From Escherichia phage FV3, in sequence record NC_019517.1: 64,000 nt of DNA, one strand, 5' to 3'. Shown here one piece after another: positions 7,767-61,847 of this stretch (the first letter of the stretch is position 1; each line of letters starts with the position of its first letter). The notes under the pieces were generated by a model. The model saw only the letters and a program-made list of their open reading frames with translations. It was not told where the DNA came from and ran no database searches. The translations under genes were made by a program, and so were the position numbers.

Positions 7767-9227
7767 ATGGATAGCAGAAGTTCAGAAATCATTGCCGCAC
7801 AAAAAGATGACGCCTTGCGAATGCTGCAGGCAGCACGTATGTATCTTCTTGAAAAACTGCCGTTTTATGGCACACTGTTGTCAGGGTTGCAGTTCGTAGA
7901 AAACCACACATGGTGCTCCACCATGGCAACAGACCATAAACGCATTTATTACAGCCCTGAGTTCATTATGGGATTGGCGGATGAGCGCAAAACCATTCTT
8001 AAAGCATCTTTGACTGACAAGCAGTTTGAGATGGCTGAGGTTTTCTATTCCCCAAAATCTGTGAAAGAGGTGGCATTTCTTCTATCGCATGAGGTGGGGC
8101 ATATTATCTGTGATCATCTGGTCCGTGGCAAAAGTTTTGAGCCGGAGCTGTTCAATATTGCCTGTGATCATGTTATCAACACAGGTCTTGTGGTTGACTT
8201 TAGCAAGCCCCCTTGTGTTTTCTTCCCGAAGGGGAAAAGCACTACGTTTGTAAAAGGTAAGCCTTTTGGCTTCTTAGCTAGTTGCTACTGTGACATGAGG
8301 TTCCATGGATGGATTGCTGAGAACGTCTATGCGGTTCTTGATAAGCAAAGAGATCAGAATAGCGGTAAAAGTAAGAACGGTAAAGGCGAGAACTCTCAAG
8401 GAGATAAACGACAAACCGACGATCACATGAGTGGTAACGGTGGCACTAGTGATGATCTTGGAAAGGCGATGGGGTATGATCAGCCACAACCAGTGATCAG
8501 CCAATCTGATAAGGATCAAGCCATGCAGGACTCTGGTGACATGTTGGAAGCAGCAATGCAGGCTTCCGGAGGTCGTTGCCCTGAGGCTGTGCGTGAGTTT
8601 GTCAAGAACAGAGGTAAGCCTGTAATCAATTATATAGACATCATTAAACAACGTATGCTGTCTAAACGAAAGGCTGAACTAACCTATAGAAAACCCGGTC
8701 GCCGATCTGGGTCTTTGACCAGCACAATGCGAAAAGTTGGAGCTATAAACAAGAATCAGCACGTTGTTGTTCCTGGTCGTAATCCGGAAAACACTATAGA
8801 TATTGTGGTGGCTTTAGACGTTTCTGGATCGATCTCACAAAGAACTTTAAAGAAAATGTTCAATGAGATCACTGGGTTGTGCAATCTGTATAAAGAGTTC
8901 AAGGTTACGATGTTCTGTTGGTCAACTGAGGTTGGAGAGGTTAAAGTATACACTCGCGGGAACATCGACGAGATGATCAACTACGAGGTCCACTCAACAT
9001 GGGGCACAACAGCCGCTTGCGTGTTCGAGTATCTGGACGCTAACATACCAAATGCAAAAGATGTCATCGTCCTGACCGACCTCTACTTTGAGCACAACTT
9101 TGAACAAAAGGTTGTTGACAACAAGTGGAAAAAGTACGATACTTTATGGGTTCTCACCGAAGGGTATAATAAAAATTATATCCCAAGCTTTGGGAAAACT
9201 GTAGAATTGATCGAGTACGCTAAATAA
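7767..9227 (+). CDS. Putative metallopeptidase (HExxH) domain + von Willebrand factor A domain protein (DUF2201/CobT-like MoxR partner)
   Basis: HEVGHIICDH zinc-peptidase-like motif in N-terminal half; MIDAS motif DVSGSIS in C-terminal half; start set at ATG 7767 with GGAG RBS (alternative ATG at 7734). Confidence 0.65.
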   Translation: MDSRSSEIIAAQKDDALRMLQAARMYLLEKLPFYGTLLSGLQFVENHTWCSTMATDHKRIYYSPEFIMGLADERKTILKASLTDKQFEMAEVFYSPKSVKEVAFLLSHEVGHIICDHLVRGKSFEPELFNIACDHVINTGLVVDFSKPPCVFFPKGKSTTFVKGKPFGFLASCYCDMRFHGWIAENVYAVLDKQRDQNSGKSKNGKGENSQGDKRQTDDHMSGNGGTSDDLGKAMGYDQPQPVISQSDKDQAMQDSGDMLEAAMQASGGRCPEAVREFVKNRGKPVINYIDIIKQRMLSKRKAELTYRKPGRRSGSLTSTMRKVGAINKNQHVVVPGRNPENTIDIVVALDVSGSISQRTLKKMFNEITGLCNLYKEFKVTMFCWSTEVGEVKVYTRGNIDEMINYEVHSTWGTTAACVFEYLDANIPNAKDVIVLTDLYFEHNFEQKVVDNKWKKYDTLWVLTEGYNKNYIPSFGKTVELIEYAK

Positions 9228-14054: not shown

Positions 14055-17000
14055 TTAACGAGAAAAGGTTGCGTAGGCTTCTAGACGATACTGCTGGTCA
14101 CCAGGGAACATAACACCTATAGAGGCTGTCCCTAGAATCCTGCCTTCCTTTCCAGACTCCATTCTGAACCCTACCCATCCTGAACTCCTTGCAGCCTCGA
14201 TGTTGTCGCTATACCCGAAAGTGGCAAGATCGTCAACACCAGCTCCAAACAGCAACTGAAGCTGACTTCTCGGAAGCCCTATAATTTCAGGAATATATGC
14301 ACCAAAGTACACCATCTGCCCTACCTTAGGACCGCTGCCGTACTCCATCGGCTTGCTTGTAGAGAAAGTCTTCATACCAGAAGTCCCTGCCGGATTAGGG
14401 TATGCCCCGTTTGTTGCTGTACCTATCCACATTCTCCACTGTGGTGTCATCTGTTTGACAGTAAAAGATGTTGAAGACGTTTTGCGCCCTGCATCATCAG
14501 TAGCTACAAACGTTATAGTGACATTACCAGGAGCTTTAAATGTTACCAGTCCTGTGGTAGCATCCACTGTTGCAATGTTGGTATTACTACTTTCCCAAGT
14601 CTTTCTGATTCCTGGCACATTGGAAGGGGTAATAGAGGGTTCCTGCATCTGCAGTTTACCACCTACAATCCCTATCCCGTTACCTGGATTATACAACGCA
14701 CCAACCTCGTCTACAATGTTACCTGCCTTGAGGCTGTACTTTTTAGAGAAGTTGTAAGTGCCGTTATATGTGTGTGTCCCTGAGAAGGTTACATCTGCCT
14801 TACCGTTGGAGATGCAAACCAAAGCATACTTCCTGTCAGGCAACTGTGCCCCAGTTTCTGGGTGAGTTTTACCAACCTGGAACACACTCGGGTCAGTGGA
14901 GTCATGGCTATCACTAATGGAGTTTGGGCCACCCATCAGCTGTGACAAACAATTCCTTACCCATGTCCAGTTATTATCACTGGAGAAGTCCACAGTCAAA
15001 TCGAATACAACCCACTCATTTGGCTTCCATACAGGAGTTGTAATCAACTTACCAACACCTCCACCCTGAAGGGTTGGAGACTGTTCAGTGATCAGGGCAG
15101 AGTATGCCAGAGTGCCTAACTGCATGGTCTGGCTTGCTGTCCTCACTACCTTAGAATCAACATCTGTGAAGTTGTTGATGATTTGGAATGTACCATAAGT
15201 GTTTTTACAGGTAATTCTGGCGTTCAGTGTGTCAATCTTCCTCACATCTGCCATAGCAGTGTTAGACACAGAGAAGTCAGAAGCTCTAGCCGAGTTTGCT
15301 GCAACAGCTGGATCAACGTTGAGAGTTGCGTTGAACTGGCAGGCAGGAGTAACCAGTAGCTTGTTATCACCTATTTGCTTCCATGAAACACTTTGAACAG
15401 GGAGATTCCATTTAATACCTGAGAAAACTTTAGCAACCCTTGGTCCCAGAGCTCCAGTCCTGTTGTCTTTACAGCTCATGGACATGGTGATCGTTGACGG
15501 AGTGGCCTGACCAAACAATTGCTGTGCTTTTGCAGAGGACATGGTGTAGAAATTGTCCTTAACAAACTCATCAGCCGCTAACGATCCGTCAGATCTCCAC
15601 CATTGCACCTGGTAGCCTGTCTTATCCCAGCCACCAACCTGCTTCAAGTCCTCCCAAGAGATTTCCAGATCCCCAGTGGTAGGGTTGATCGCCGCAGTTC
15701 CCGGTGTTCCAGATGACCATATTGGGATATCGAACCACGCTGGTTTAACAGACTGCACTGCGTTAGGTCCTATTGCAGCAGCAAGTTGTTGACCCATCAA
15801 TACGCGAGTATCTTTCACATAACCCCACTCGATCATAGACCCAGAGTAACCCTCTTTCTTGTAGGCAGGGGATCCGTTCAAATGGATAAGTCGGCTTGTG
15901 CCAAAGTTATATGCCCCGCCACCATTATCATCTGCAAAATTGTATATGATTCTATCCCTAATATCTTTCCATGCCCTACCGCCAATCTCATAGTCATGGT
16001 CATAGCATCTTTGCAGCGTTGTCCAGCAGATGATTGCCATCCTTCTACCGTTACTGAAGCCGAAAGCTTGATCGTTAAGTTCTCTCCACAAGTAGCAGTT
16101 GGTGGTCCACATGGCTCTGTGAATGTTGTACCAGTTTATAGATTTGGCAGAGTTGTTCCACTGAGTTCCGGGTAATTCAGGCCATACTGCATTAACCAGC
16201 ATGTCCTCTGTCCCTGCATCTATCAAGAATCCTCTCACCTTCTTACCCATACCTACTCTGTCTTTAGCAATCCATGAGCCAAACAATCTCAGTTTTGGAC
16301 CATAAACATCCTCTTCGCGATGCTCAAGAGAAACATACTTTAGATATACCGTAGGGTCACCGTAGGTACCATCACAAACACTCTTATGCATGTTCTCACC
16401 AAGGTCCAGACGGATACCTGTGAGAGTTTTGGTATCATCTGTGAACTTATCTGTCAAATCAAACTCGTACCACCACCACCCGGCTCCAAGTAAAACTTTC
16501 TTACAGCGCTTAGAGTCTGTGTCGGATATTCTTTTATCCCCTGCATATGGTGAGTCTGCAAACTGGTAGTGCAGAGCAACTTCAAAAGGATGTGTGGATG
16601 TTCCGTTTTCTGCAAGAACTTGCTTCCCGATCAGATCGCATTTAATAATCATCACGACACGTTTGTACCCCCAGGTTAACGGAACAACAAACGGATATCT
16701 CCCTCCATCCATATTAGCATGTATAGCTGCGAAATTTATGTACGGGTCAACAGCATTACCTAGAGTTTCAGGTCCAGGAATCATCTTGTACTTCTTGACC
16801 TGACCCATAATATAGTCACTGCCATAGGTTGCAGCCTCGAAGCAAGAACCACTATCAGGCAGTTCACCAGGTCCCCAGAATATTGCTCCGGAACAGTTGT
16901 AGAACCACTTGTTAGGATCATAGTTGTTCTTGAAGGTCTGAACCTCGTTTGCCTGCTTCAACAAGAAAACATGAGTATCTGTGAAGATTGCAGGATTCAC

Positions 17001-19688
17001 TCTTGCCTGTCGATCAGCATATCCCGGTTGGTTAAACCACTGATTGCAAGAATAGTCCCGCATATAGTCATAATCAGAGTATTTGTTTGCATCCTCGTTC
17101 CAACACAAGTTCAGGTTGGTGCCGCCCATGCACACAATATATTCTTCAACGTATTTATCACTTCTGGTGGGAATACCTACGAACCATCTATTAACAGGTT
17201 CGTTCCAAGCAGTACGCTCATCCTTAACGCAGATTGCAATCCAGTCATGTGTCCCTGTTTTCTTGCACACATCGCGCTTCATACCGTAGTAGAATTCTTT
17301 AGTATTTGGCTCAGGTGCACTTATCAGGTAACTCCACGCCTGGTCTGCATATGTTCCGTTGGTGCGAGGGTCATGATCAAAGGCATACATGATGATTCTT
17401 TCCCCACCAAGATGTTCACCAAGGGTGACTTTGATGTTCACATCTCCGTAACCGTTGCGAACAACATCCATATTATCAATAGAAATGCCTCTAGGAGTGT
17501 AGGCAATTTTCAGTGAGTTATCCTCACTAGTGCCACCAAGGGTGATCCCAATATTGTTTGTCGTCCCGTCAGCATATCTTACTGTGGCTTCCCAGCGTAT
17601 TCCGAAATATCCTACGTCATGGCTGACAATTTTTAATGTACGAGCACCAGAGTTAGGTTTTCCAGGATCAGGCCAAGGGTTTGGGTGTTCGTGAACAGTC
17701 AACGATGTCCCGTTTTGTTCGTTGACCTGCAACATTTTACCACCCCTTCCGTTTGGGTTGAACTCCCATAGGGCCTGTGTCTGCACCAAGTTATCATAGG
17801 TATTCCGTCGCTGATTATAAATCTCTTGGGTAACATCATAAGTTACTGATCCAGCATCCATTCTATGGAGTCTGACCATATACGATGTATCCCCTTCTAC
17901 TGCAGGCTGGGCCGCATTTAGTCCAAAGTATACAGTGTCATTAACATGGAACTGTTTGTTTCTACCGACAGTATGCCATTTACCATCAGACGGATACGCC
18001 GGAACAATAGTGTTCCAGTTCAAAGTCCTTGTTGTGTGGGTCCTGCCTGTGCCATGTTTGTCATGATAGGTTATTTTTACAGAGTACAGGCCACGTCTGT
18101 TAACATTCCTGTTATACTGGGTAACAATAACTTCGTTGGCCCCACCGTGGTTCCAGTTAGTAGAGAATTGGTAATTTGCATCTGTAACAACCGTACCTGC
18201 AGCATTTACCAGTTCAATCTTGTCAATAATGAACGTAGCACCCTCTGGCTGAGGCTTTAATTTCATCTTGACCGTATCACCAATGTAAATATTGCTAACG
18301 CTGCTAACACCGTTAACGTCGAAAATATCATCAACACCCCAACTGTCTACTGGGACATTTTTATACCAATTCTCAGGGACCTCCGTGAACCCTTGGCTAT
18401 TAAGTCTGCCGCCAAACAGGTTATTAGATCCTGCAAAACTTCCCCTCGGGATGCCTGACCACCAAAGTTTGCCATTAACAACAGTAAAGGTTCCTAAAAA
18501 ACCTTCTCTGTGAATGCCTTGGAAATAAACACTTTCTGTCCAGCTAACTGGGAGGCGTTGCTCAACGTATTTGGCTGTGGCAAGAGCTTGATAGTGGATA
18601 AAATTGGCCCTAGGGCTATTGTTTGCAGATTGTGCGCCAATATCATTGCAAAGGTTGCGAGAGAATCCACGGTACTGCTTAGTACCATTGTTGAAGAAAA
18701 TGCCACTTGTGCCGTACCCACGAGCCATTATTACCTCATGGGTGTAGGTGATATTCAAGGCACGCCATGTATCATCTCCCCAAACATCTTGCCCGTAGAA
18801 TACGTTAACAAGTTGCTGGTCATCAGGTCTGTGCATTCTTTGTGTTACAACCACTGCCCCGTTCGGACCGCACATGAACCCTTTCCACTCCTCATCTGTA
18901 GGAATGCCCCTCAAATCGTCACGGGTAATCTGAGCAGGGGGCCAAACGAGAGTGTTTCTACTATTGTTTCTCAGAAAGTCATATCCAGCAATCCAGAAAC
19001 CTCTAGGACCACCGAAAATAACAGAGTTATCATGCACCTCACAGTTAATGCTTGGGTTTTTCCAAGGACCTGTTTCAGGATTTTCCGATGTTTCACCAAT
19101 CTTTACAGGGGTTGCATGCTGGTTTTTATCCACATGCAAAGATCCGTAGGTGTTGTTACCAGATCCGTACAGGTGTAAAATGCCAGTGCCTTCTGCCTCT
19201 GCCATAACCCAGACGGTGTTGTTAATACCACCCATCACCTCAACAAGGCGCTCTGGGTGGGTGTCAAGGTGCAATCCTTTAACGATTTGTTCAGGAAGAG
19301 GTGTCCACTCCCTTACACAAACATCATTACCGCCTGCAGCATCAGACCCAATAAGCCCTGCAGTACAGCCGATGTAGAAAAACTGATTATCAAAAGTTCG
19401 GATCACAAACGCACGGTCTGCTCTCCACACATGATCAACGTTCCAGGCAGCCTCATTAGGGTAGTTTATCGTGTCAAGATCCCCAGTCCTACACTCCCCG
19501 AACCTGTTGTACCCTGTGATATTAAGCTGACCATTGTCAAAAAGTATAGCTAAGCTATTTACATAGGCTACTGTAGTGCTTGTACCGTCACTGTTGTCTA
19601 TTGGGTATGACAGAACAGCAAGTTCCTTAACTCCACCCCTCTTATCGAGGAAATGACGACCAAGTTTTAGCAAAGGGATTGGAAGCAT
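14055..19688 (-). CDS. Giant tail-associated protein (1877 aa) with RCC1-like repeats and a Big_2 Ig-like domain; putative receptor-binding protein or depolymerase
   Basis: N-terminal YGSGNNTYGSLH-type repeats; C-terminal Big_2-like segment SSNTNIATVDATTGLVTFKAPGNVTITFVATDDAGRK; distal gene of the late operon. Confidence 0.55.
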   Translation of the reverse strand: MLPIPLLKLGRHFLDKRGGVKELAVLSYPIDNSDGTSTTVAYVNSLAILFDNGQLNITGYNRFGECRTGDLDTINYPNEAAWNVDHVWRADRAFVIRTFDNQFFYIGCTAGLIGSDAAGGNDVCVREWTPLPEQIVKGLHLDTHPERLVEVMGGINNTVWVMAEAEGTGILHLYGSGNNTYGSLHVDKNQHATPVKIGETSENPETGPWKNPSINCEVHDNSVIFGGPRGFWIAGYDFLRNNSRNTLVWPPAQITRDDLRGIPTDEEWKGFMCGPNGAVVVTQRMHRPDDQQLVNVFYGQDVWGDDTWRALNITYTHEVIMARGYGTSGIFFNNGTKQYRGFSRNLCNDIGAQSANNSPRANFIHYQALATAKYVEQRLPVSWTESVYFQGIHREGFLGTFTVVNGKLWWSGIPRGSFAGSNNLFGGRLNSQGFTEVPENWYKNVPVDSWGVDDIFDVNGVSSVSNIYIGDTVKMKLKPQPEGATFIIDKIELVNAAGTVVTDANYQFSTNWNHGGANEVIVTQYNRNVNRRGLYSVKITYHDKHGTGRTHTTRTLNWNTIVPAYPSDGKWHTVGRNKQFHVNDTVYFGLNAAQPAVEGDTSYMVRLHRMDAGSVTYDVTQEIYNQRRNTYDNLVQTQALWEFNPNGRGGKMLQVNEQNGTSLTVHEHPNPWPDPGKPNSGARTLKIVSHDVGYFGIRWEATVRYADGTTNNIGITLGGTSEDNSLKIAYTPRGISIDNMDVVRNGYGDVNIKVTLGEHLGGERIIMYAFDHDPRTNGTYADQAWSYLISAPEPNTKEFYYGMKRDVCKKTGTHDWIAICVKDERTAWNEPVNRWFVGIPTRSDKYVEEYIVCMGGTNLNLCWNEDANKYSDYDYMRDYSCNQWFNQPGYADRQARVNPAIFTDTHVFLLKQANEVQTFKNNYDPNKWFYNCSGAIFWGPGELPDSGSCFEAATYGSDYIMGQVKKYKMIPGPETLGNAVDPYINFAAIHANMDGGRYPFVVPLTWGYKRVVMIIKCDLIGKQVLAENGTSTHPFEVALHYQFADSPYAGDKRISDTDSKRCKKVLLGAGWWWYEFDLTDKFTDDTKTLTGIRLDLGENMHKSVCDGTYGDPTVYLKYVSLEHREEDVYGPKLRLFGSWIAKDRVGMGKKVRGFLIDAGTEDMLVNAVWPELPGTQWNNSAKSINWYNIHRAMWTTNCYLWRELNDQAFGFSNGRRMAIICWTTLQRCYDHDYEIGGRAWKDIRDRIIYNFADDNGGGAYNFGTSRLIHLNGSPAYKKEGYSGSMIEWGYVKDTRVLMGQQLAAAIGPNAVQSVKPAWFDIPIWSSGTPGTAAINPTTGDLEISWEDLKQVGGWDKTGYQVQWWRSDGSLAADEFVKDNFYTMSSAKAQQLFGQATPSTITMSMSCKDNRTGALGPRVAKVFSGIKWNLPVQSVSWKQIGDNKLLVTPACQFNATLNVDPAVAANSARASDFSVSNTAMADVRKIDTLNARITCKNTYGTFQIINNFTDVDSKVVRTASQTMQLGTLAYSALITEQSPTLQGGGVGKLITTPVWKPNEWVVFDLTVDFSSDNNWTWVRNCLSQLMGGPNSISDSHDSTDPSVFQVGKTHPETGAQLPDRKYALVCISNGKADVTFSGTHTYNGTYNFSKKYSLKAGNIVDEVGALYNPGNGIGIVGGKLQMQEPSITPSNVPGIRKTWESSNTNIATVDATTGLVTFKAPGNVTITFVATDDAGRKTSSTSFTVKQMTPQWRMWIGTATNGAYPNPAGTSGMKTFSTSKPMEYGSGPKVGQMVYFGAYIPEIIGLPRSQLQLLFGAGVDDLATFGYSDNIEAARSSGWVGFRMESGKEGRILGTASIGVMFPGDQQYRLEAYATFSR

Positions 19689-19736: not shown

Positions 19737-21482
19737 TTAACGTTGTGCAATAACCACATCCACAATATCACCAACACCACAATATGTCAATTGTAGCAAG
19801 GTAACGCTGTTGGCTTTGTTGTTAATGACAGGGGTAGCCGACAGTATGGCATATTTATCGTGCAAAGTCACGTTGTGGCCTACAGCATCTTGAATGACAT
19901 AGATGATTGCAGTAAACGGGTAAGGTTTATCTTCAGCCGATGTTCCAGGCCATTGGCCTATTGTAAAATCCCCTTTCGCGTGGACAACATACATACTGGC
20001 CTGCCCGTTAGGTGTCCATGTCCCACTCGATGCGTCAACCTCCTCTAAATCAAAATCTACCTTCCCTGCGTGGAAAGTAGGGGCAGTAATAGTTTTACCA
20101 GCCTCAATTTCTTGAGAGGTGGTTATCTTACCACTAGAGTTAATGCCATTGCAGACAAAGTTGACATTAGAGAAGTCTGGCAGCCACCCAGTCACCGTGC
20201 CGGATATTTCAAGGTTGTGAAGATAAGTGGTTCCCGTACCTGCTGCGTTTAAACTAACATCTCCATTTACCTGCAAGTTGCGGGTAACGTTGCAGTTTTC
20301 AGAGTTTGCAGTTGTTGCAGTTAGAGTAGTGGTTGTCAGCTCGGTAATCGTACCTTTGTTGGCGGTAAGCCCTTCCCCTTCAAAAGTGGCACGCTCATTC
20401 ACCCTCAGAGTATTTAAAGATATGTTCTGGACAGATGCTGTGCCACGAATGACTATAGATCCGCCAACCTCTAAATCTCCATTGATCAGTGCATCTCCCG
20501 TGCTTTCAATATAGCTAGGGTAGATCATGGTGCCATCTACAGAGTAGGTTATCCCTGTAACGGTGCCTGTCACCTCAAGGTTCTTAACCCTGGTGGTCCC
20601 ATCAACCTGCAATGTCGGTTCGGTTGCTGCCTTCATGGAGTTACCACGAATGTACACGTAGTCAAAAAAGTTATTACCTAGACCATCAAAATGCACATCG
20701 TTGTTATTAGCCACTGGTTTCCCAGAAGTTATAGTGTCAGCTATAACTCTGTGGGTGACCACTTCATGAGGTTGCAGCTCTGTGCTTCTCCAGTCTGCAT
20801 GCTTAGGATCGCTCCACGCAAAAGTTAGTGTAGAAGTATTTGCAGTAAGGATTAGGTTCCTGAAGCGTGCAGTAGAATCCGCTCCATTAACAGGCCCGTG
20901 TAAGGTAAGGGTGCCACCAACTATAGTGTTAGCAAGTTCTGTAAGACCTTTTACCACCAAAGACCCTACAGTAACTTTCATCCCCTCCATGGCTTTAAAT
21001 ATGCTATCCACATAGTCAACAACAAACTCTGTGTTTGCTATAGACTCGGACTTATCGTCCATTGGAGGTGTAGGTACTCGCGGGTCACCTTCGAATCTTG
21101 GGCTGTTAAGTTTTGCGTAGTATTTTGCCATTACTGCAGAATCGGTATATAATCTCCAGTTCGGAGATTGTGAAGGATCTGCTGGCATCCTAACCGGGTT
21201 AGATTTTGATGCTGCTGGGGCGTACCACCACTGAGGGCCTGTATCCCCTTTAAACTCATACAACTGGTTAAAAACTGTTGTGGATGCACCATACGCCCAA
21301 GGGATTGGTGGCGTTTTAAAATAAAGGGTGTCAAGCATGGCTTTTCGTACCGTAGGGATGGTGGTCCCATCCTCTACGACAACTTCATCCACAGCGTTAC
21401 CGTTGACAATCAAGTGCAAACGTTCAGAATCAACAATTACTTGATCTACCGCCTGCTCGAAGCTTGTCATGTCTTGCGCCAT
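19737..21482 (-). CDS. Tail fibre / tailspike protein (581 aa)
   Basis: Repetitive beta-helix-like segments (NLEVTGTVTG, NLQVNGDVSL, NLEISGTVTG); position in fibre module. Confidence 0.5.
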   Translation of the reverse strand: MAQDMTSFEQAVDQVIVDSERLHLIVNGNAVDEVVVEDGTTIPTVRKAMLDTLYFKTPPIPWAYGASTTVFNQLYEFKGDTGPQWWYAPAASKSNPVRMPADPSQSPNWRLYTDSAVMAKYYAKLNSPRFEGDPRVPTPPMDDKSESIANTEFVVDYVDSIFKAMEGMKVTVGSLVVKGLTELANTIVGGTLTLHGPVNGADSTARFRNLILTANTSTLTFAWSDPKHADWRSTELQPHEVVTHRVIADTITSGKPVANNNDVHFDGLGNNFFDYVYIRGNSMKAATEPTLQVDGTTRVKNLEVTGTVTGITYSVDGTMIYPSYIESTGDALINGDLEVGGSIVIRGTASVQNISLNTLRVNERATFEGEGLTANKGTITELTTTTLTATTANSENCNVTRNLQVNGDVSLNAAGTGTTYLHNLEISGTVTGWLPDFSNVNFVCNGINSSGKITTSQEIEAGKTITAPTFHAGKVDFDLEEVDASSGTWTPNGQASMYVVHAKGDFTIGQWPGTSAEDKPYPFTAIIYVIQDAVGHNVTLHDKYAILSATPVINNKANSVTLLQLTYCGVGDIVDVVIAQR

Positions 21483-21491: not shown

Positions 21492-21758
21492 TTAAGCTTT
21501 TTGCTCTTCGTTTTTAACGTGGTCAGGGTGCTGGCAACCCCACCGGAGCGAGATGAATTTGCTAATAAGCTGGGGGCAGGCTACTGAAGGTGCGTATATC
21601 CACGCATACCATTCAGGAAGCGTATCATTGTACCCCATATGAATAAAAACCCCAGTCATCACTGCCATGCCTATGTTTGACCATAGCTTAGATTGGGACA
21701 CTTTTGTAGGGTCATCAGATGCTGCAACCAGTCCCCATAAAAACTGAGTTAATTTCAT
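21492..21758 (-). CDS. Small membrane protein (88 aa), holin candidate
   Basis: Two to three hydrophobic segments and a charged C-terminus (DHVKNEEQKA). Confidence 0.35.
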   Translation of the reverse strand: MKLTQFLWGLVAASDDPTKVSQSKLWSNIGMAVMTGVFIHMGYNDTLPEWYAWIYAPSVACPQLISKFISLRWGCQHPDHVKNEEQKA

Positions 21759-21767: not shown

Positions 21768-22814
21768 TTAAGCATAAGATATGGTGATCCATTGACCGTT
21801 TACAAATTTTTGAATAGCTCCAGTCCAATAGTCGCCCTGATACGGGTGTTTATAGGCGTAATTGCCGGAGCACATTACATGCCCAGGGTATACTCTTGAT
21901 TCTCTGTAGGTGGTTCTGAAACGGTTTGCTATCCTTACATCTTCAACACCCCTACTAGGCATAGGAATAGTAAGGTTACCACTACTGTCTGCGCTACTAC
22001 CATTTACCCTGCGGACCACGTTTCTTCCACCAACTGTTGCATATTGACCCCTGGCGGTTTTATCGTTACAATCTACTCTTCCGCCTATTTGAGCGCTGCC
22101 GCAGGATTGTTGTCCATTAACAGTGGCTCTAGGTATCGTTACCGCATTAGCATTTGCAGAGGAGCTTTTTGCATCATTGCATTCAAGATTTCCTTGGATA
22201 GCCAGTCTTGCACGGTTGGCAGTTATAGCATTGAGCTTCATAGCCGAAAACACAGGCTGCCCACCAGAAGGTTGAAATCTCCAACGGAAACCGTCTATTT
22301 GGTGAGAAGGATCATCAAGGTCTGTGCCGTCAGCGCCACCGATGTTGTCCATAATCCAGAAATCCATCATCGTCTTGTCTGGAGTTATGGTGGTGTATAT
22401 AGCCGCATTGTCTGTTGACGAAGATGCAAACTCGATCCTTTGAAGACCTAAAGTTTGAGTCTGGATCATTGTGTCTCCAGCCTTGTCAACATAAAGGTCA
22501 TCCATTTCTTCAGGTGAGTATACATTGAGAACTTGACGTGCAGCAGCTTTGTCTGGAACGTCTGCCAGATTATTAGTGACCCTTAAGAATCTATTATCCC
22601 ATCCAGGGACAACATCTTCTGTTAAATGCTTTAGCCACGCAGAGAGCATGTGGAGTTCAAAGTTAACAACTTCACATGCTATCCTTTGTGTCATATCCCA
22701 ACCTTTCAATCTCTCTTCTTTGTTCGGTTGAGATTTGTTCAACTCTCCTGTATTTTCAAGCACAACATCCTGGTTGGCCCAAATATCAAGAGGGATAACT
22801 GGTTTAGTCATCAC
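21768..22814 (-). CDS. Tail fibre protein, paralog B (P2 gpH-like C-terminus)
   Basis: GDTMIQ segment; C-terminal KFVNGQWITISYA resembles P2 gpH KYINGTWYNVAQV; roughly 35-40 percent identical by eye to 23827-24867. Confidence 0.6.
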   Translation of the reverse strand: MMTKPVIPLDIWANQDVVLENTGELNKSQPNKEERLKGWDMTQRIACEVVNFELHMLSAWLKHLTEDVVPGWDNRFLRVTNNLADVPDKAAARQVLNVYSPEEMDDLYVDKAGDTMIQTQTLGLQRIEFASSSTDNAAIYTTITPDKTMMDFWIMDNIGGADGTDLDDPSHQIDGFRWRFQPSGGQPVFSAMKLNAITANRARLAIQGNLECNDAKSSSANANAVTIPRATVNGQQSCGSAQIGGRVDCNDKTARGQYATVGGRNVVRRVNGSSADSSGNLTIPMPSRGVEDVRIANRFRTTYRESRVYPGHVMCSGNYAYKHPYQGDYWTGAIQKFVNGQWITISYA

Positions 22815-22901
22815 GTTCTCCTGAGAAAATTCCTTAAGGACTATTTTAACACTTTAGAGAACAAAATGCAAGAACGGCATCCTTGCCGTTCTGACCTTTG
22901 T

Positions 22902-23216
22902 TTACCTTTTACTATGCTCTACAAGCATGTGTAAAATCTTTTGCACATCGGCTCTGATACCGGAGACATCTGTCCTGACATCTTGCTTAAGGTCGTTAAT
23001 ATCGGCCTCTAGCTTACTTAACCGGGTCTCGATAATGGAATCAAGTCTATCTTTTGTAACCATGCTATTTTTCACTAAAATGAGGTCTTTCTCCAGCTCA
23101 TCCAGCCTCTTGGAAATGCCTTTCCATTTGGTGTGCCACTGGTTGAAAGCCCATACACAGATCGGGACAACGGTACCCATGCAGATACCGTACAATGCCG
23201 CCAAATCCAACTCCAC
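22902..23216 (-). CDS. Small N-terminal-TM, coiled-coil protein (104 aa)
   Basis: Hydrophobic N-terminus LAALYGICMGTVVPICVWAF followed by a charged heptad-rich region. Confidence 0.4.
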   Translation of the reverse strand: MELDLAALYGICMGTVVPICVWAFNQWHTKWKGISKRLDELEKDLILVKNSMVTKDRLDSIIETRLSKLEADINDLKQDVRTDVSGIRADVQKILHMLVEHSKR

Positions 23217-23227
23217 AACACCTCCTC

Positions 23228-23812
23228 TTAGAGGGTAGGTCGTTCCGGGAAGAAAATGTCAGGGGCTTTAGATGTATCTATTTCAAGAAGTTTTACCCTG
23301 TACATTTTCAAATCTCTGATGTTGCGTTTTTGGTCATCAGTAAGATCGTATTCAAGGTCAATCATGTCTTGATAGGCACCAATTCTAGCAGTAGCCCAAG
23401 CAAGTTCTGTCTCTATGACACCCTCTGCCTGTTGAACAAAGAATTCATTGTCTGTGACAAATTCATCACCAACTAAACGCAAAGCGTCGTGGTGGAGCAT
23501 AATGTTTTCTGGTACCTCTTCTTTTTTGGCGATAACCACACGAAGACCTGGAGCAGGCCACAAGGCATCAGGTTCTTCTGTAGATGTCTTAAGAATACCC
23601 TTCTCGTCAACAAGTAGGAAGATACAGCCTGGATTTTCTTGTCGCAGTGTTCGTGATTGCACATACCAATCGCCATCATCATTACGTAAAAAATATCCAG
23701 TGTATGCTGTGTAATCCTCAACCTCCTGAGGAGTCAGCTCCTTGGTCTCCTTGTTGGTGTAGTATTCGCCAGATCCCGGCTGGTAAAGCTTAAACTCTTG
23801 AAGTATTTTCAT
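23228..23812 (-). CDS. Putative tail fibre assembly protein (chaperone)
   Basis: 194 aa, directly downstream of a gpH-like fibre gene as for P2 gpG; assignment mainly by synteny. Confidence 0.4.
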   Translation of the reverse strand: MKILQEFKLYQPGSGEYYTNKETKELTPQEVEDYTAYTGYFLRNDDGDWYVQSRTLRQENPGCIFLLVDEKGILKTSTEEPDALWPAPGLRVVIAKKEEVPENIMLHHDALRLVGDEFVTDNEFFVQQAEGVIETELAWATARIGAYQDMIDLEYDLTDDQKRNIRDLKMYRVKLLEIDTSKAPDIFFPERPTL

Positions 23813-23826
23813 GCTAGTCCTCCGAT

Positions 23827-24867
23827 CTACGCATAATTAACAGTGATCCATTGACCGTTTACAAGTTTCTGTAAAGGCCCTGCCCAGTAGGTTGAACCAC
23901 GCATCTCTTTTTTATCACCAAAATGCCAACCTGTGACAACATAGCCGTTGCGAACTGGAGATTCAGAAACACCATCAACAAGTCTTGCGCCGATTCTGAT
24001 ATCCTGTACACCTGTCTGTGGGATGGTGATCGTTACATCTCCGTTGCCGTTAGCCGTAACTCCATTCACAGAGCGAACCACATTTCTGTTACCGACAACA
24101 CAATGCTGGCTTCTTACAACCATACTGTCACAACTTGCACCGCCATTGACATATACTGACCCAGCCGTCAGCTGACTGGCTACATTGCAGTTGGTGAATG
24201 TTGCTGTGCTGCTAATGGTGAGGTTATTACACCGCATGTTATCAACAACTTCAACATTGCCCACCACTTTCAACAACGCACGATTAGCCGTGATTGCGTT
24301 CAGATACATCAGAGTGAACTCTGGATTAATGTCCGGCTGAGTTGGCTGGAATCTCCAACGGAACGCATCTACTGTAGATGTGCCACCATCATCGAACGCC
24401 CCAATATTATCACTTAACCCAAAGTCAAGGGTTGTCTTATCTGGGCCGATAGTTGTCTCTATCCAAGCCTTATCTGTCTCGGCAGCTTTAAAGTTGATAC
24501 GTTGCAAACCCAACGGGCCTGTCATTGTATCACCTGTAACTTTTACATACCTGGCGTCTGCCTCTTCCTTAGTAATAATCCCAAGGTTTCTACGGGCAAC
24601 AGGGATGTTCAAAAGATCGCTCAGGTTATTATCACGTACCAGATAACGGCCTTCTTGAGCGGGGATCTGCTCGTCAGCAATGTATTTTGCCCAAGTCCCG
24701 AGCATATTGAAAATATAGTTAAGTTCTTCACAGGATGGCTTTTGACCAAGATCCCAACCTTTTCTCCACAAATCATCAATCGGGCGTAGCCTGTTCTGTC
24801 TGTGGGTGTTAGGCAGAACCTGATCCTCCTCTGCCCAAATCTCTAATGGAAAACTAGGTTTTGACAT
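23827..24867 (-). CDS. Tail fibre protein, paralog A (P2 gpH-like C-terminus)
   Basis: GDTMTGPL motif; C-terminal KLVNGQWITVNYA. Confidence 0.6.
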   Translation of the reverse strand: MSKPSFPLEIWAEEDQVLPNTHRQNRLRPIDDLWRKGWDLGQKPSCEELNYIFNMLGTWAKYIADEQIPAQEGRYLVRDNNLSDLLNIPVARRNLGIITKEEADARYVKVTGDTMTGPLGLQRINFKAAETDKAWIETTIGPDKTTLDFGLSDNIGAFDDGGTSTVDAFRWRFQPTQPDINPEFTLMYLNAITANRALLKVVGNVEVVDNMRCNNLTISSTATFTNCNVASQLTAGSVYVNGGASCDSMVVRSQHCVVGNRNVVRSVNGVTANGNGDVTITIPQTGVQDIRIGARLVDGVSESPVRNGYVVTGWHFGDKKEMRGSTYWAGPLQKLVNGQWITVNYA

Positions 24868-24879: not shown

Positions 24880-26952
24880 TTATGAGAAGTCTGGCGGGAC
24901 AACATCTTCTACATACCCTTTCAGAGCAACCTGCCCCATATGAAGCACGGTAGAATCTCTGGCGGTAACAGTGATGCTGTCAGACATTACTTGCGGGTAT
25001 GCCCACACATACTGTTTTACCTCAGGGTATCTATACTCTATGGTTGCCATGTTTCCGCAGATACATCTCCATAAAAATTCTTGGTAATTCCTGGTTGGGT
25101 CGTAGCCATATACCGGAGCAAGCTCTTTGCTAGGAACGAACCCTGCAAGGTATTGTATTTCAGACGGTTGCCAACCTAACTTAACGATAGGTATGTTTAC
25201 AGACTCTTTTGCCTTTTCAATACCCCCCTGCATCACCCAATCGTAGCACTCAGTGCAGAAGAAATCAAGAGCACCTGCTTCCTTTTTATATTGGTCAGCA
25301 AGGTTCAGCTTTTGCGTAAGCTCGGTTTCCATAATGGTCGGAAAAAACAGCAAAGCTGTCATCTGAGCCGATGCAGCGTGTGCTTTTATTGCCTTTGAAA
25401 TAGCTGCAATACGAGCTCCAAGCTTACCACGACAAAATGCTACATACTTGTCATAAACACCGCCAGTCTTAGGATCGTCAATAGTCCCAATGTCTAGTGC
25501 ATATTCACCAGTCTCATCATAAAACGCCTGTTTTGTAGGGTAGTCATAAATACAAGGCCTACGAGTATCGGTATTGAACCACCACCACGGTTCACCAATC
25601 TGCATAATTACTGGCAGGTTGTTTCTCATAGCGGCTGATGCAAAATTCTTAAATACTGCAGTAAGGAAATTCATACCCTCTTCAATGGTCGGAGACAAGA
25701 GGTAACTACAAGGCGTATAGCCTGTTTTAGCATAGTTATCGTTCCAATCTCTCTGGGTCCATTCCAACGGACAGGCATCGCTATAAAGCTCAAAGCTTAC
25801 AGACTGCATAACGTCGAAGTCGTGTCGCTTGGCATTATACATAAAGTCATCGTGCCATTTATAAGCTGCAGCGTTTAGAGCCCCTGTCCTGTTTATAGAC
25901 CATTGGGTTCCGGACCATGTGTAATCATAATAATGGCTCATACCAACATAATGGTTTATGGTTCCGGTATAGCCTAGACGCTTGATATTGCTCAACACCC
26001 TTAAAGGAGATACGTTCCACATATCGTCATATGCTGTGCAGATCCCAACGTCGTGCTCTTTCACCTGGATATTGTTAAGTTGCATCATCTTCCAGCCTGT
26101 GTCCGGCTGAAGCAGATCTAGACGCAACTCGCACTCTACATTTTCCGTTCTTGGGTCTGTGCTATTACTTACCCAATCTTTAGGCATGAGTGGTATTAAA
26201 ATCCTTCTCACCTGCCGAGGATCAACACCCATCATGTTGTTGTTCTGGTCCATCCCGACGCAGTCCTCGAAATCAATATGAATTTCTGCAACATTCTTAT
26301 CCTCTGAGATGCTGACAGCATATTGAGCTAAAGGAACATAGATGATTGTGCCGTCAACAAGGTCTACAGTCATAATCATCTTTTCAGGGGTGGAGAAGTT
26401 GCTGGCATTGGTTATTGACATTCTGAACCAAAGCTTGGTGTTTCTCATCTCGTAGTGATCATCAAATCCAATGCCGAAATGGTCATATTTGTCAACTGTT
26501 TCCCAAATGCACCCAGCCATGCCTCCATATGTTCTTGACACTAAACGGTTAATACAGCAGTTATTATCCGCAACAATACAGGTGCTTTCAGTCTGCTGTG
26601 TGGTTGTAACCCAATATCTTGGGTGAAACATTCTCTCCTCAACGGTATCCCAAGATATTCTGTCAAGATTCTCATCTGAAACTATTGTACATTTCGCTCT
26701 TTGTGTTCCAATCATAACCCCTTGGGAGTTTGATGAAAACTCCATAAAGAAGCTTCTTGGCAACCTGTTTGGCAATTTGTCAACAATTTCTACAGGAATC
26801 TCAATACTGGTTGCCCCAACCGGGATAGTTACATCGCCCTCAACATGATCATAATCCCTACCTGGAACGGCAGTATCTTGAACTGTGCGGTAATGAAACC
26901 GTGCAGCCATTGTAGAGTAATCACGGTAAGGTTTAAAAACAGCTGTTGCCAT
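24880..26952 (-). CDS. Large tail-associated protein (690 aa), possible enzymatic (depolymerase-like) domain
   Basis: N-terminal Calx-beta/Ig-like segment (GDVTIPVGATSIEIPVEIVD); Trp/Tyr-rich C-terminal region; immediately upstream of fibre paralog A. Confidence 0.4.
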   Translation of the reverse strand: MATAVFKPYRDYSTMAARFHYRTVQDTAVPGRDYDHVEGDVTIPVGATSIEIPVEIVDKLPNRLPRSFFMEFSSNSQGVMIGTQRAKCTIVSDENLDRISWDTVEERMFHPRYWVTTTQQTESTCIVADNNCCINRLVSRTYGGMAGCIWETVDKYDHFGIGFDDHYEMRNTKLWFRMSITNASNFSTPEKMIMTVDLVDGTIIYVPLAQYAVSISEDKNVAEIHIDFEDCVGMDQNNNMMGVDPRQVRRILIPLMPKDWVSNSTDPRTENVECELRLDLLQPDTGWKMMQLNNIQVKEHDVGICTAYDDMWNVSPLRVLSNIKRLGYTGTINHYVGMSHYYDYTWSGTQWSINRTGALNAAAYKWHDDFMYNAKRHDFDVMQSVSFELYSDACPLEWTQRDWNDNYAKTGYTPCSYLLSPTIEEGMNFLTAVFKNFASAAMRNNLPVIMQIGEPWWWFNTDTRRPCIYDYPTKQAFYDETGEYALDIGTIDDPKTGGVYDKYVAFCRGKLGARIAAISKAIKAHAASAQMTALLFFPTIMETELTQKLNLADQYKKEAGALDFFCTECYDWVMQGGIEKAKESVNIPIVKLGWQPSEIQYLAGFVPSKELAPVYGYDPTRNYQEFLWRCICGNMATIEYRYPEVKQYVWAYPQVMSDSITVTARDSTVLHMGQVALKGYVEDVVPPDFS

Positions 26953-27638
26953 TAACCCTCCTGTCTAGTTGCGTTCACTGTAATACTTTCACAATAAATA
27001 GTTGTGGTGTCCCAATCAGGTCTTACGTCAGGAACATATAGCAAAGTAGCCAACCCGCCAACACCGAACTGGTTTTCTTCCCACACCGACCCGAAGCCGA
27101 GAGCTGTAGAGTCTCCTTCAAAACCAAAAGCTTGCCCTTGCGACTCTGTAAGGCGCAAATGGCAAGGTAATGGCAGCATATCTAAGATCTGGTCGATAGA
27201 CTGCAGTATGTCAAAGCAGGTTTTTCTAATGTTTATGTCAAACCTGAAGTTGTCTCCTTTCCACGTATCGAAATTGTCTCTTCCGAACAATTGTCGCAAG
27301 GTGGAGATGACATCTTCACGAGTCCCACCCCTTGATGCTGCTGCTTGCTGAATAACCAGAGTAGCACGAAAATCAGCATCTGAAAGCCCATTCCGAAGAA
27401 TACCGAGTTGATTACCAACTTCGTCAAGGTATCTTCCGCTGGCATTGTTAAGCAGTCTTCCTTCAGCCAAACCTACCAGCATCTTATCAACATTCTCCAA
27501 CCTTTTAAGGTACACAGTTAAGAATGTGACTAAATTAACCTTCTCAGCCAGAAAATCTCCAGGCAGGTAGTCAAGACCTCCCTGAACAAAATCTGGCAGA
27601 GTGTGGATGTGGTTGACATCCGACTTAATCTCTGCCAT
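26952..27638 (-). CDS. Putative baseplate/tail protein (228 aa; gpI-like by position)
   Basis: Synteny downstream of the J-like gene; no strong motif. Confidence 0.35.
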   Translation of the reverse strand: MAEIKSDVNHIHTLPDFVQGGLDYLPGDFLAEKVNLVTFLTVYLKRLENVDKMLVGLAEGRLLNNASGRYLDEVGNQLGILRNGLSDADFRATLVIQQAAASRGGTREDVISTLRQLFGRDNFDTWKGDNFRFDINIRKTCFDILQSIDQILDMLPLPCHLRLTESQGQAFGFEGDSTALGFGSVWEENQFGVGGLATLLYVPDVRPDWDTTTIYCESITVNATRQEG

Positions 27639-27649: not shown

Positions 27650-29140
27650 TTAAATAGTTTGTTGGAAAGTTATATTACTTTCGTCGAGGTCAAACACCTC
27701 GGTCATGTTTGCAACAATATCGTTTGTAGTGTAAGCTTCATCAGAGGCTCCCACAGGTTTAACTTGAATTACCAGTCTGTTAAATCTGCCTATTGACACA
27801 GCAGCTGATGCAGCACCTACCAATTGGATGTTGTACAGCGTATCGGCAACATCCAGGCCGTTAACAACCTGCAAAAGAGCCTCTGTAATGGCATCTTTTT
27901 CGGTAGTAGAAAGCGCAGCACCTGAGTAGGTAATTCTCATATCCAGGCGGTAAGTGTTTGCCTTAGAATAATAAATCCTTTCAGTCTGACCGTCTGATGT
28001 GGTAATATCGTAGAAGATATTCCCATAAGTTCTGTTTGTGCAAGCTATGGTTTGATACAGCGCCTGGCAGATATCCTCTGTTGCACCACCAAACACCACC
28101 ACTTGAAACTTATAAGGTGGTATGCCTTTCGCATCCGTTTTATCGGTGTTGTTAGAGAACACTCTTACTTTCTCAACACCTTTCACCTCGCTTACAGCGC
28201 TAAGGATTGCAGGACGGGTAGCTTTAGATGCTAACTGTTTAGTGCTGGAAGCTCTTAAGCGATACTCTGAGTCCTTCTCAACATCCCTGCCCTCATTGAA
28301 TCTTTCTCTGTTGGTAAGCTTGATAAATCCGCTGGGAGTAGGCGACATTGTTGTCACGGTTTCTGCCTCTCTTGACAGCTCACCAGCCTCGTTAGCTATA
28401 ACATCTAAGGTGATAGTTCTTTCACCTACAATCGGAGATACTCTGAAATCTACTCTGCTATTAAGACCAACTTGATCAAGATTCGAATTGTATCCTATCC
28501 ACAACGTTCCTGTCAACATATCTATCTGAATTAGATCGTCGTTCAACAAGGTTGTATTATCGACAATGAATTGCTTAATCTCGCCGTAAAAGCTTGGCAA
28601 ATCAGAAGAGTCCAGAGACTTATCGGTTAGAACCAGACTTTTTGTTTTGATACTTCCATCCGTCTGGTTGGTAATTTGAAAGTTGTATTTACCGATTCTT
28701 AGATCTGGAGCGTTTATTCTGTGAGCAATAAGATTTCCCGCCACCTGCACGTCGCTGCTAAGAACAAAGTTGCCACTATCCAGCGTGTAGGTTTTGGAAT
28801 CATAAATCATATTGTACGGCACAGTTGTGTTAATTGTCAACTGGCAAGTACCTGATGATTTAGAACGGCCTCTCCGGTAAATACCTTGCCTTCCAAGAAG
28901 TTCATCAAGGTAAATACCTTCTGCCCCGTACAGCGTCTGCGATGCGTATACAGATGCTGCCATAAGAATAAGTTGATATTCTCGCTCGTTGAAGATAGTG
29001 GTCAGCTTATCTGCAACTGAGTTACTTTGTACGTTGAAGTTTTCGCCAAAAGCACGGATCAGGCTTTGCTTAGTTTCAACGATTAGGTCATTTAGGGTTG
29101 GTATAACGAAACCAGCCTCTGTCAATCCATACTTAGCCAC
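27650..29140 (-). CDS. Putative baseplate J-like protein (496 aa)
   Basis: Size, position and N-terminal region loosely resembling P2 gpJ. Confidence 0.4.
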   Translation of the reverse strand: MAKYGLTEAGFVIPTLNDLIVETKQSLIRAFGENFNVQSNSVADKLTTIFNEREYQLILMAASVYASQTLYGAEGIYLDELLGRQGIYRRGRSKSSGTCQLTINTTVPYNMIYDSKTYTLDSGNFVLSSDVQVAGNLIAHRINAPDLRIGKYNFQITNQTDGSIKTKSLVLTDKSLDSSDLPSFYGEIKQFIVDNTTLLNDDLIQIDMLTGTLWIGYNSNLDQVGLNSRVDFRVSPIVGERTITLDVIANEAGELSREAETVTTMSPTPSGFIKLTNRERFNEGRDVEKDSEYRLRASSTKQLASKATRPAILSAVSEVKGVEKVRVFSNNTDKTDAKGIPPYKFQVVVFGGATEDICQALYQTIACTNRTYGNIFYDITTSDGQTERIYYSKANTYRLDMRITYSGAALSTTEKDAITEALLQVVNGLDVADTLYNIQLVGAASAAVSIGRFNRLVIQVKPVGASDEAYTTNDIVANMTEVFDLDESNITFQQTI

Positions 29141-29207
29141 GTCACTCCTCCGGTATGAAAATCTCTACAAGGTATTTTACCAAATTTTGTAACAATAGTC
29201 AATCTGA

Positions 29208-29238
29208 GCATAAAAATAAACCCCGCCGAAGCGGGGCT
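29208..29238 (-). terminator. Rho-independent terminator (minus strand), CCCCGC-UUCG-GCGGGG hairpin plus U-tract
   Basis: Same hairpin core as at 2501-2516; followed on the minus strand by TTTATTTTTAT; just downstream of the 1279-aa gene. Confidence 0.55.
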
Positions 29239-29245
29239 TTAAAGG

Positions 29246-61200: not shown

Positions 61201-61277
61201 TGGTCTCCACGGAGTGATTCGAACACTCGACCTCCTGATCCCAAATCAGGCGCTCTACCAAGCTGAGCTACGCGGAG
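61201..61277 (-). tRNA. tRNA-Pro (anticodon TGG)
   Basis: Manual cloverleaf: acceptor CTCCGCG/CGTGGAG, D-stem GCTC/GAGC, anticodon loop TTTGGGA, T-loop TTCGAAT, encoded CCA. Confidence 0.7.
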
Positions 61278-61287
61278 TATTTATAAT

Positions 61288-61362
61288 TTGGTGGCCCTGG
61301 GTGGAATTGAACCACCGTCTGGCGATTATGAGTCGCTTGCTTGAACCTTCCAGCTACAGGGC
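61288..61362 (-). tRNA. tRNA-Met (anticodon CAT)
   Basis: Acceptor GGCCCTG/CAGGGCC, anticodon loop CTCATAA, T-arm GGTGG-TTCAATT-CCACC, encoded CCA. Confidence 0.6.
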
Positions 61363-61363
61363 C

Positions 61364-61440
61364 ATGGTGCTGATAGCAGGACTCGAACCTGCAACCTATT
61401 GATTACAAATCAATTGCACTACCAATTGTGCTACATCAGC
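61364..61440 (-). tRNA. tRNA-Thr (anticodon TGT)
   Basis: Acceptor GCTGATG/TATCAGC, D-stem GCAC/GTGC, anticodon arm ATTGA-TTTGTAA-TCAAT, T-loop TTCGAGT, encoded CCA. Confidence 0.7.
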
Positions 61441-61443
61441 AAA

Positions 61444-61544: not shown

Positions 61545-61642
61545 TCAGTATGTTGACCATGTTGCTAGTCGGCGATGACGACTGTAACATTTGATAATCC
61601 GGTTCTGCTTCCGGCTTTCGCTTAATTACAAGGTCAACAATA

Positions 61643-61733: not shown

Positions 61734-61847
61734 TTTATAAACAATACTGATAATGACACTGATTTTCGAGCAGTTAGTGACTAGTATAAACGACGATAAA
61801 TATCAATGCCATTATCTGTATGATTTATGCATTTAAAAATATAAATT

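Follow-up and report, generated by a model that had tools for sequence, protein, structure and literature searches.

The window analyzed here, a stretch of 64,000 nucleotides (nt) from Escherichia phage FV3 (NC_019517.1), carries two genes for short tail fibers (STF) on the minus strand, STF1 (23827-24867; 346 amino acids, aa) and STF2 (21768-22811; 347 aa). It belongs to a Vequintavirus, an rV5-like myovirus of E. coli: the 3.6-kb region around the two genes has 90-99% DNA identity to 115 phage records, nearly all of them rV5-like Escherichia phages of this genus. All genes of the region are on the minus strand, and their functions were assigned with Pfam and PHROGs. Both open reading frames match the "tail fiber protein" profile phrog_4465 (STF1 residues 1-346 against profile positions 1-342, E 2e-171; STF2 residues 2-348, E 6e-163), and the similarity to this family, the Vequintavirinae-type short tail fiber, spans both proteins from end to end. 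Read from a GTG at 22814, STF2 would have 348 aa; the ATG at 22811 seems the more likely start, with AGGAG 6 nt upstream, and it is the start chosen in the annotations of rV5 and the BASEL phages. Two co-oriented fiber genes, of 346 and 348 aa, had been described in a first-pass annotation of this DNA, and they are indeed present.

A BLASTP alignment over the full length of the two proteins has 152/356 identities (43%) and 58% positives (E 2e-94). This confirms that STF1 and STF2 are true paralogous fiber genes, and not proteins sharing short motifs only. The motifs noticed initially are real: GDTMTG in STF1 corresponds to GDTMIQ in STF2, and the C-terminal QKLVNGQWITVNYA to QKFVNGQWITISYA. 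The distribution of the similarity had been described less accurately, as a common N-terminal region followed by differing central and distal parts. The distal tips do differ, but the central shaft is the best-conserved part, with 37-65% identity at residues ~106-210 and a peak of 61-65%, and N-terminal residues 30-90 (27-37%) are among the most diverged, together with residues 211-255 (17-27%) and the tip at 286-330 (27-37%). The last ~20 residues of STF2 are again 67% identical to STF1. The shafts of the window proteins differ by paralog-specific indels of 2, 4, and 2 residues. At the DNA level, the only recognizable repeat is a 63-nt segment at both 3' ends (21769-21831 and 23828-23890; 76% identity).

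The N-terminal anchor of both fibers is of the Vequintavirinae type. STF1 residues 1-108 match residues 1-111 of the short tail fiber of the Pectobacterium phage phiTE (chain 9cuy_c, E 1.8e-19), STF2 residues 2-84 match the same chain with E 2e-08, and the match between this chain and the family profile has E 1.6e-36. In the cryo-electron microscopy (cryo-EM) structure of phiTE, residues 3-92 of 9cuy_c were modeled as a globular joint that binds wedge protein 1. From this homology, the N-terminal ~90 residues of STF1 (24598-24867) are predicted to be the domain docking on the baseplate wedge.

The C-terminal ~60 residues of STF1 (23827-24012) are homologous to the distal tip of the Mu tail fiber protein gpS, whose crystal structure was obtained together with its chaperone (5yvq). 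They match residues 440-501 of 5yvq_A in a phmmer search and Mu gpS in BLASTP (E 9e-07), and the family profile matches with E 4.7e-13. In a Foldseek search, 5yvq_A was the sole match at E<=0.001 (E 8e-07); the query was a poor single-chain STF1 model, built from a 30-sequence alignment and used for this search only (predicted local distance difference test, pLDDT, 62; predicted template modeling score, pTM, 0.27). The tip of STF1 is predicted to be the receptor-binding and chaperone-dependent part of the fiber. The STF2 tip (21768-21953), with loops 27-37% identical to those of STF1, resembles the Mu gpS C-terminus only weakly in BLASTP (E 0.004). In addition, over its last 58 residues, STF1 has 57-59% identity to fiber tips of ~52-kb Salmonella and E. 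coli myoviruses (e.g., CF2, birk, brunost), which match STF1 at the tip and nowhere else on the fiber. Tips of the STF1 type are also found in phi92-like phages, Av-05, and Salmonella phage R7 (50-56% identity), and this tip domain appears to be common to distinct phage groups.

The fibers had initially been likened to P2 gpH. This stands for the last ~60 residues, where residues 609-666 of P2 gpH align with STF1 residues 287-343 (28% identity, BLASTP E 0.001) and, weakly, with STF2 (E 0.017), although the STF1 tip is closer to Mu gpS. It does not extend to the remainder of the proteins: outside residues 609-666, P2 gpH (669 aa) yielded no BLASTP alignment to either fiber, and no Pfam family reached its curated cut-off in STF1 or STF2, with no P2-type fiber, collar, or repeat domain found. 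When all PDB sequences were searched by phmmer or by profile, no T4 gp12 chain came up at E<=1.

The two fiber genes are separated by an assembly gene and a gene for a small membrane protein, much as the first-pass annotation had it. The former (23228-23812) encodes the 194-aa tail fiber assembly chaperone Tfa (Caudo_TAP E 1e-11, phrog_136 E 1e-36), which has weak BLASTP similarity to Mu gpU (E 0.004) and no BLASTP similarity to P2 gpG. The latter (22902-23216) encodes a 104-aa protein with a hydrophobic N-terminus and a coiled-coil-like remainder (phrog_5345, E 1e-48), followed by a spacer of 87 nt before STF2. Downstream of STF2 lie genes for an 88-aa membrane protein (21492-21758; phrog_1322, E 3e-32) and for lateral fiber proteins of 581 aa (19737-21482) and 1877 aa (14055-19688). 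The contexts of the two fibers differ. STF1 follows the wedge genes and a gene for an NCTSP protein and is adjoined on its 3' side by Tfa, the only Caudo_TAP chaperone gene in the module, whereas STF2 comes after the 104-aa gene, precedes the 88-aa gene, and has no chaperone gene next to it. Av-05, GAP31, Salmonella phage R7, and VIK251 likewise have a 315-nt gene after Tfa, and in tblastn searches with the Av-05 proteins, the 104-aa and 88-aa genes were recovered in the window with E 7e-17 and E 9e-27, respectively. Genes of both these families, phrog_5345 and phrog_1322, sit in the fiber module of every Vequintavirinae genus examined.

The spacer upstream of STF2 contains a terminator-like hairpin (22871-22892, minus strand) with a 9-bp stem including 5 GC pairs, followed by TGCATTTTGT, and a promoter-like element, TTGCAT-N17-TAAAAT, with TGn before the -10 box (22843-22871, minus strand), ~30 nt upstream of the STF2 start. 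The Bas51 and L008 lineages retain a hairpin here despite altered stem sequences, and the TTGCAT-N17-TGnTAAAAT element is kept in four lineages whose flanking proteins are down to 45-50% identity. A generic sigma-70 scan did not list this element, whose -35 box matches at 3/6 positions only, and conservation is thus the sole basis for reading it as a promoter. We rejected the possibility that it represents a recurring phage promoter consensus, as it has a single match in the 64-kb window. It seems that STF2 heads a separate transcription unit together with the 88-aa gene and the lateral fiber genes.

To compare copy numbers, we searched a phage collection by tblastn with either fiber. Two places per record were found only in ~115 Vequintavirus records, while Avunavirus, Seunavirus, Mydovirus, phi92-like phages, and other relatives had one. 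A search of 5.8 billion proteins revealed two further two-copy lineages, both in uncultured material. In the first one, represented by three Logan assemblies (L008-L010), STF1 and STF2 are 88% and 77% identical to the window proteins; in the second one, a metagenome contig (L007; KUNK20-1 scaffold_729), the respective values are 72% and 49%. Neither has a cultured counterpart in the phage collection: no record there has STF1 at ~88% or STF2 at ~77% identity, and all its matches to the L007 STF2 are at <60%. A protein of the L008-L010 lineage (P0002) has also been deposited as E. coli hypothetical protein BAU67_001867.

In the sister genera, as seen in Av-05, GAP31, Salmonella phage R7, and VIK251, the gene order is STF, Tfa, 104-aa protein, 157-aa protein, 88-91-aa protein, lateral tail fiber. 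The slot of STF2 is thus taken there by a gene for a 157-aa polytopic membrane protein (Av-05 L002:6949-7422, with equivalents in L003, L004, and L005). The possibility that this protein is a fiber fragment was rejected (BLASTP E 0.78 against STF1 and 2.5 against STF2). A tblastn search of the 64-kb window with the 157-aa protein gave nothing significant (best E 0.045), and therefore the duplication would have coincided with loss or displacement of its gene. As there is a single Tfa gene and STF2 occupies the slot of the 157-aa gene, it is the fiber gene alone, and not a fiber-plus-chaperone cassette, that was copied. The initial idea of a cassette duplicated and then diversified hence holds for the duplication of the fiber, but not for the cassette.

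Based on these comparisons, STF2 most likely arose by a duplication on the stem leading to Vequintavirus. Neighbor-joining trees place the STF1 and STF2 clades next to each other as sisters, with bootstrap support of 98% for the shaft (residues 111-285) and 70% for the full length, and the derived residues common to both paralogs include F171W. No donor nearer to STF2 than STF1 was found among the phage collection and the 5.8 billion proteins; the best non-orthologous matches to STF2 are either STF1-type proteins or no closer than 40-43%.

The two copies have diverged unequally. STF1 is 46-52% identical to the single-copy fibers of Avunavirus, Seunavirus, and Mydovirus and 30.5% identical to the phi92-like outgroup, compared to 36-43% and 22.9%, respectively, for STF2. 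Along the series Bas51, L008, L007, the identity to the window proteins is 98.8, 88, and 72% for STF1 and 95.4, 77, and 49% for STF2. Among the nine genes of the module, STF2 is clearly the most diverged one in the comparison with Bas51 and narrowly so with L008; with L007, Tfa is lower still (44.7%). Relative to Bas51, the nonsynonymous divergence (dN) is 0.0206 in STF2 and 0.0050 in STF1 at similar synonymous divergence (dS), yielding dN/dS of 0.075 and 0.017; these ratios could be calculated against Bas51 only, as dS is saturated in the comparison with the L008 lineage. Hence, both genes are under purifying selection, with amino-acid change being approximately four times faster in STF2, and STF1 is the conservative copy. 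The STF2 allele of the window is somewhat unusual, being ~95-96% identical to that of most isolates and at least 99% identical in 5 records only. Among the 115 isolates, which come from many hosts, both fibers are 95-100% conserved. The BASEL paper, too, reports no considerable allelic variation of the paralogs (PMC8594841); the 77%-identical STF2 of L008-L010 represents more between-lineage variation than this statement suggests.

At positions conserved elsewhere, STF2 differs most in the docking domain. We defined 48 conserved N-terminal positions as those shared by at least 85% of 31 sequences from other lineages. STF1 keeps 39 of them, and 10 are replaced in all STF2 sequences, including P19, I30, W34, Y51, and Y62, each of which is 100% conserved in the other lineages; W34, Y51, and Y62 of STF1 correspond to R, F, and H in STF2. 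By contrast, none of the nine conserved positions of the tip (0/9, compared to 10/48) has been lost by STF2, although the tip loops of the rV5-type STF2 are unlike those of all relatives. A different pattern is seen in L007, where the last ~60 residues of the two paralogs are 90-97% identical and the remainder 27-60%, and where the 3' ends of the genes form a 184-nt DNA repeat with 86% identity (6785-6968 and 8880-9063). This pattern points to gene conversion of the tip between the paralogs. Both L007 copies are kept with nearly the same tip, which argues against the second copy existing only to provide another tip.

The duplication and its interpretation are already in the literature, for rV5 since 2013 and for the genus since 2021. 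In the rV5 genome, gp30 and gp33 were reported to be 42.3% identical and T4 gp12-like by HHpred, and were suggested to recognize two lipopolysaccharide (LPS) chemotypes; rV5 virions contain both fiber proteins and gp32 (Kropinski 2013, PMC3606486). The rV5 counterparts are one-to-one: gp33 is STF1, gp32 is Tfa, gp31 is the 104-aa protein, and gp30 is STF2. Maffei 2021 described two paralogous short tail fibers and a chaperone, and traced their homology to the one locus that phi92-like phages have and, further back, to Mu GpS/GpU (PMC8594841). The BASEL annotation of the module lists a "short tail fiber protein" twice, a "tail fiber chaperone", and, for the 104-aa gene, a hypothetical protein. 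The present comparisons add that two copies are confined to Vequintavirus and two uncultured sister lineages and that the fiber gene alone was duplicated; further additions are the slot and upstream signals of STF2, its faster change with an altered dock and tip, the homogenized tips of L007, and the restriction of the P2 gpH likeness to the last ~60 residues.

Functional data are available for Bas54 (MaxBurger), whose genes agree in order and length with those of the window. In transposon mutagenesis on E. coli K-12, its genes 0032-0040 were all called Essential, with TA sites hit in 3/61 cases in STF1 (0035), 2/35 in Tfa (0036), 1/20 in the 104-aa gene (0037), 1/57 in STF2 (0038), and 0/19 in the 88-aa gene (0039); the flanking fiber genes, 0031 (180/221) and 0041 (281/336), were called Non-essential (bioRxiv 10.1101/2025.11.20.689424). 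Structural data come from the phi92 particle, where gp147 (fiber III) forms six downward-pointing trimers on the wedge protein gp145 and resembles Mu (PMC13450770); gp147 is orthologous to the single STF of phi92-like phages and to STF1. Six homotrimers attached to the wedge have been described for phiTE, too. As for the receptor, phage LL12 requires Glc I of the LPS outer core (PMC7229145), and LL12 and the BASEL Vequintavirinae need the waaC/waaF/waaG-dependent LPS core (PMC7229145, PMC8594841). The genetic data on these phages place the terminal receptor in the LPS core, at Glc I and in a waaG-dependent manner; a short fiber may be what binds it.

Taken together, we consider it probable, at roughly 70%, that the locus is a short-tail-fiber module specifying two non-redundant sets of short fibers rather than interchangeable host-range alleles. 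Both proteins are found in virions and both genes are called essential; therefore, they are probably not simple alternatives. STF1 would be the ancestral short fiber, a trimer by homology, with its N-terminal ~90 residues docking on the baseplate wedge protein and its C-terminal ~60 residues, a Mu-gpS-type tip presumably folded with the help of the adjacent Tfa, contacting the LPS core. STF2 would be a copy of the fiber gene alone, placed three genes downstream in the slot of the 157-aa gene, behind a hairpin and a promoter-like element of its own. It would have remodeled the docking domain and the tip loops and retained the shaft and the extreme C-terminal strand. Through this conserved strand, one Tfa could fold both fibers. 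Both would then be built into the virion, and both are apparently required on the same host.

A stronger version of this reading, to which we assign a rather low probability, is that STF2 is an obligatory new structural element, either occupying a second docking site, with twelve short fibers of two kinds per particle and engagement of both kinds required, or forming heterotrimers with STF1. The remodeled N-terminal domain would have created this additional site, which could be on the baseplate or on a different fiber. A heterotrimer of STF1 and STF2 would be the first heteromeric Mu-type tail fiber, as far as we know.

A number of observations weigh against two non-redundant fibers derived by duplication. 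The Bas54 insertions are within an operon, where a hit in STF1 might have a polar effect on Tfa, and one in STF2 on essential downstream genes; the authors of that study argue against widespread polarity without excluding it (bioRxiv 10.1101/2025.11.20.689424). In low-resolution cryo-EM of Bas54 and Bas49, a single STF model was fitted, and only three fibers were seen near the baseplate (PMC12143355; baseplate data EMD-51869 and EMD-51868). The monomer model of STF1 is poor, with the pLDDT and pTM values given above. The trees do not agree along the protein, as bootstrap support for monophyly of STF1 and STF2 is 0% over the N-terminal 110 residues and 52-70% over longer spans, and STF2 residues 61-120 are 52-53% identical to Seunavirus fibers but 35% to STF1. 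Finally, the sisterhood signal in the shaft could stem from gene conversion, such as seen in L007.

One explanation that has to be weighed against two non-redundant fibers is that STF1 and STF2 are alternative adhesins, interchangeable and each directed at a different LPS core chemotype, so that one of them would be enough on any given host and having both would widen the host range. This is the view of Kropinski 2013 and close to the two alternative receptor-binding tips proposed in the first-pass annotation. It agrees with the strong difference between the tips, with the ability of the tip module to recombine, as in L007, and with STF2 evolving faster than every neighboring gene, with the above exception of Tfa in L007. 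Yet both genes are Essential in Bas54 on one and the same host, K-12; both hardly vary among the 115 isolates, which were obtained from many hosts, with little allelic variation seen in BASEL as well; the positions lost by STF2 are in the dock and not in the tip; and L007 retains both paralogs with nearly equal tips. Together with the presence of both proteins in virions, this makes alternative host-range tips doubtful, and we regard this explanation as possible but not likely.

A less probable explanation concerns the origin of STF2, which could have been imported from a Vequintavirinae-like phage, replacing the 157-aa gene, and later partly homogenized with STF1. Such horizontal acquisition would account for the lack of support for monophyly in residues 1-110, for the proximity of residues 61-120 to Seunavirus fibers, and for STF2 having its own hairpin and promoter-like signals, and gene conversion between the paralogs does happen. 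However, no candidate donor was found in the phage collection or among the 5.8 billion proteins, and the 98% support in the shaft together with the shared derived residues favors sisterhood. Moreover, STF2 is farther than STF1 from the phi92-like outgroup, as predicted by rate acceleration. A horizontal origin with partial gene conversion is accordingly the weaker rival of duplication in the stem, and we hold it to be improbable. The third explanation, one set of six heteromeric fibers in which STF1 and STF2 form mixed trimers (e.g., 2:1) with the single Tfa, is very unlikely: while the proteins are co-linear and of near-equal length (346 and 347 aa), both present in virions and both called essential, share one chaperone gene and a conserved C-terminal strand, and correspond to one fitted STF density in Bas54 and Bas49, the shaft indels, including a 7-residue insertion in the L007 STF2, suit an in-register trimer poorly, the N-terminal domains are only 27-50% identical, STF2 lies past a terminator-like hairpin in an apparently separate transcription unit, and one gene product alone makes up the trimers described for the related fibers of Mu, phiTE, and phi92.

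The closest known systems are those of rV5 and the BASEL phages, whose fibers and chaperone (gp33, gp30, and gp32 in rV5) are orthologous, of the same lengths, and in the same order; compared with Bas51, the identity of the window proteins is 95-99%. There is no essential difference, and the window represents another isolate of the same genus. Phi92-like phages (Justusliebigvirus), Avunavirus, Seunavirus, and Mydovirus have a homologous fiber followed by Tfa just downstream of the wedge genes. Unlike Vequintavirus, these relatives have a single fiber, and the Vequintavirinae genera among them carry the 157-aa membrane-protein gene at the STF2 slot; the shaft of the phi92-like fiber is unrelated in sequence to that of the window fibers (8-19% identity).

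Mu gpS and gpU (5yvq, 9ki1) share with STF1 a homologous tip of ~60 residues and a chaperone of the Caudo_TAP family encoded directly downstream. In Mu, according to its annotation, two tips are placed on one constant N-terminal part by inversion of the G segment. The window differs from Mu and P1 in having two complete co-oriented open reading frames with their own starts, 2 kb apart, and neither a constant N-terminal exon nor an inversion. In addition, the N-terminal anchor of the Mu fiber is unrelated to that of the window fibers, and no separate chaperone gene accompanies STF2. The likeness to T4 gp12 would be one of function, as a short baseplate fiber thought to bind the LPS core as the terminal receptor. 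Unlike Tfa here, the chaperone of T4 gp12 is gp57A.

Upstream of STF1, the module includes genes for a Baseplate_J wedge protein (27650-29140; Pfam Baseplate_J E 2e-09, phrog_6), a 228-aa baseplate protein (26952-27638), and a 690-aa N4 gp65-like protein with an NCTSP TIM barrel (24880-26952), all on the minus strand. The wedge protein is the probable docking platform of the short fibers. Its equivalence to phi92 gp145 is by synteny only, via PaulScherrer, a near-identical phi92-like phage in which the STF gene is two genes downstream of a 496-aa baseplate gene. The 690-aa protein contains Calx-beta, NCTSP_N, and NCTSP TIM-barrel domains. In the window and in Av-05, its gene separates STF1 from the wedge genes, which is not the case in Seunavirus and Mydovirus. 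The N4 gp65-like 690-aa protein has been proposed in the literature to be a fiber binding the conserved N4 glycan receptor, or enterobacterial common antigen (ECA). Just upstream of the Baseplate_J gene, there is another terminator-like hairpin, a strong one (29239-29218), and after it the element TTGACT-N17-TAAAAT, which carries a TG extension (29202-29174). This pair (29174-29239) is a probable operon boundary, and as such it bears on how polarity in the published transposon data is judged.

Elsewhere in the window, a minus-strand cluster of seven tRNA genes (Pro, Met, Thr, Ser, Tyr, Arg) is located at 61201-62013; it includes a 99-nt "tRNA-???" called by ARAGORN, with a four-base anticodon (atcc), at 61446-61544. 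The comparisons also retrieved 16-21 GenBank records named "Campylobacter phage" (MG0656xx, e.g., MG065690, MG065635, MG065639), with Campylobacter jejuni stated as the host. Across this locus, they share 95-99% identity with rV5-like or phi92-like phages of E. coli, and their host label looks doubtful.

Phages of the rV5 type are among the commonest broad-host-range coliphages isolated and are candidates for therapy and food safety. Engineering of their host range needs knowledge of which fiber binds what. The interest that remains is in the apparent essentiality of both copies and in the position of the second fiber on the baseplate. If STF2 is obligatory, it would be a case of a recent gene duplication turned essential for virion function, and if both fibers are needed at once, swapping one tip would be insufficient to retarget these phages.

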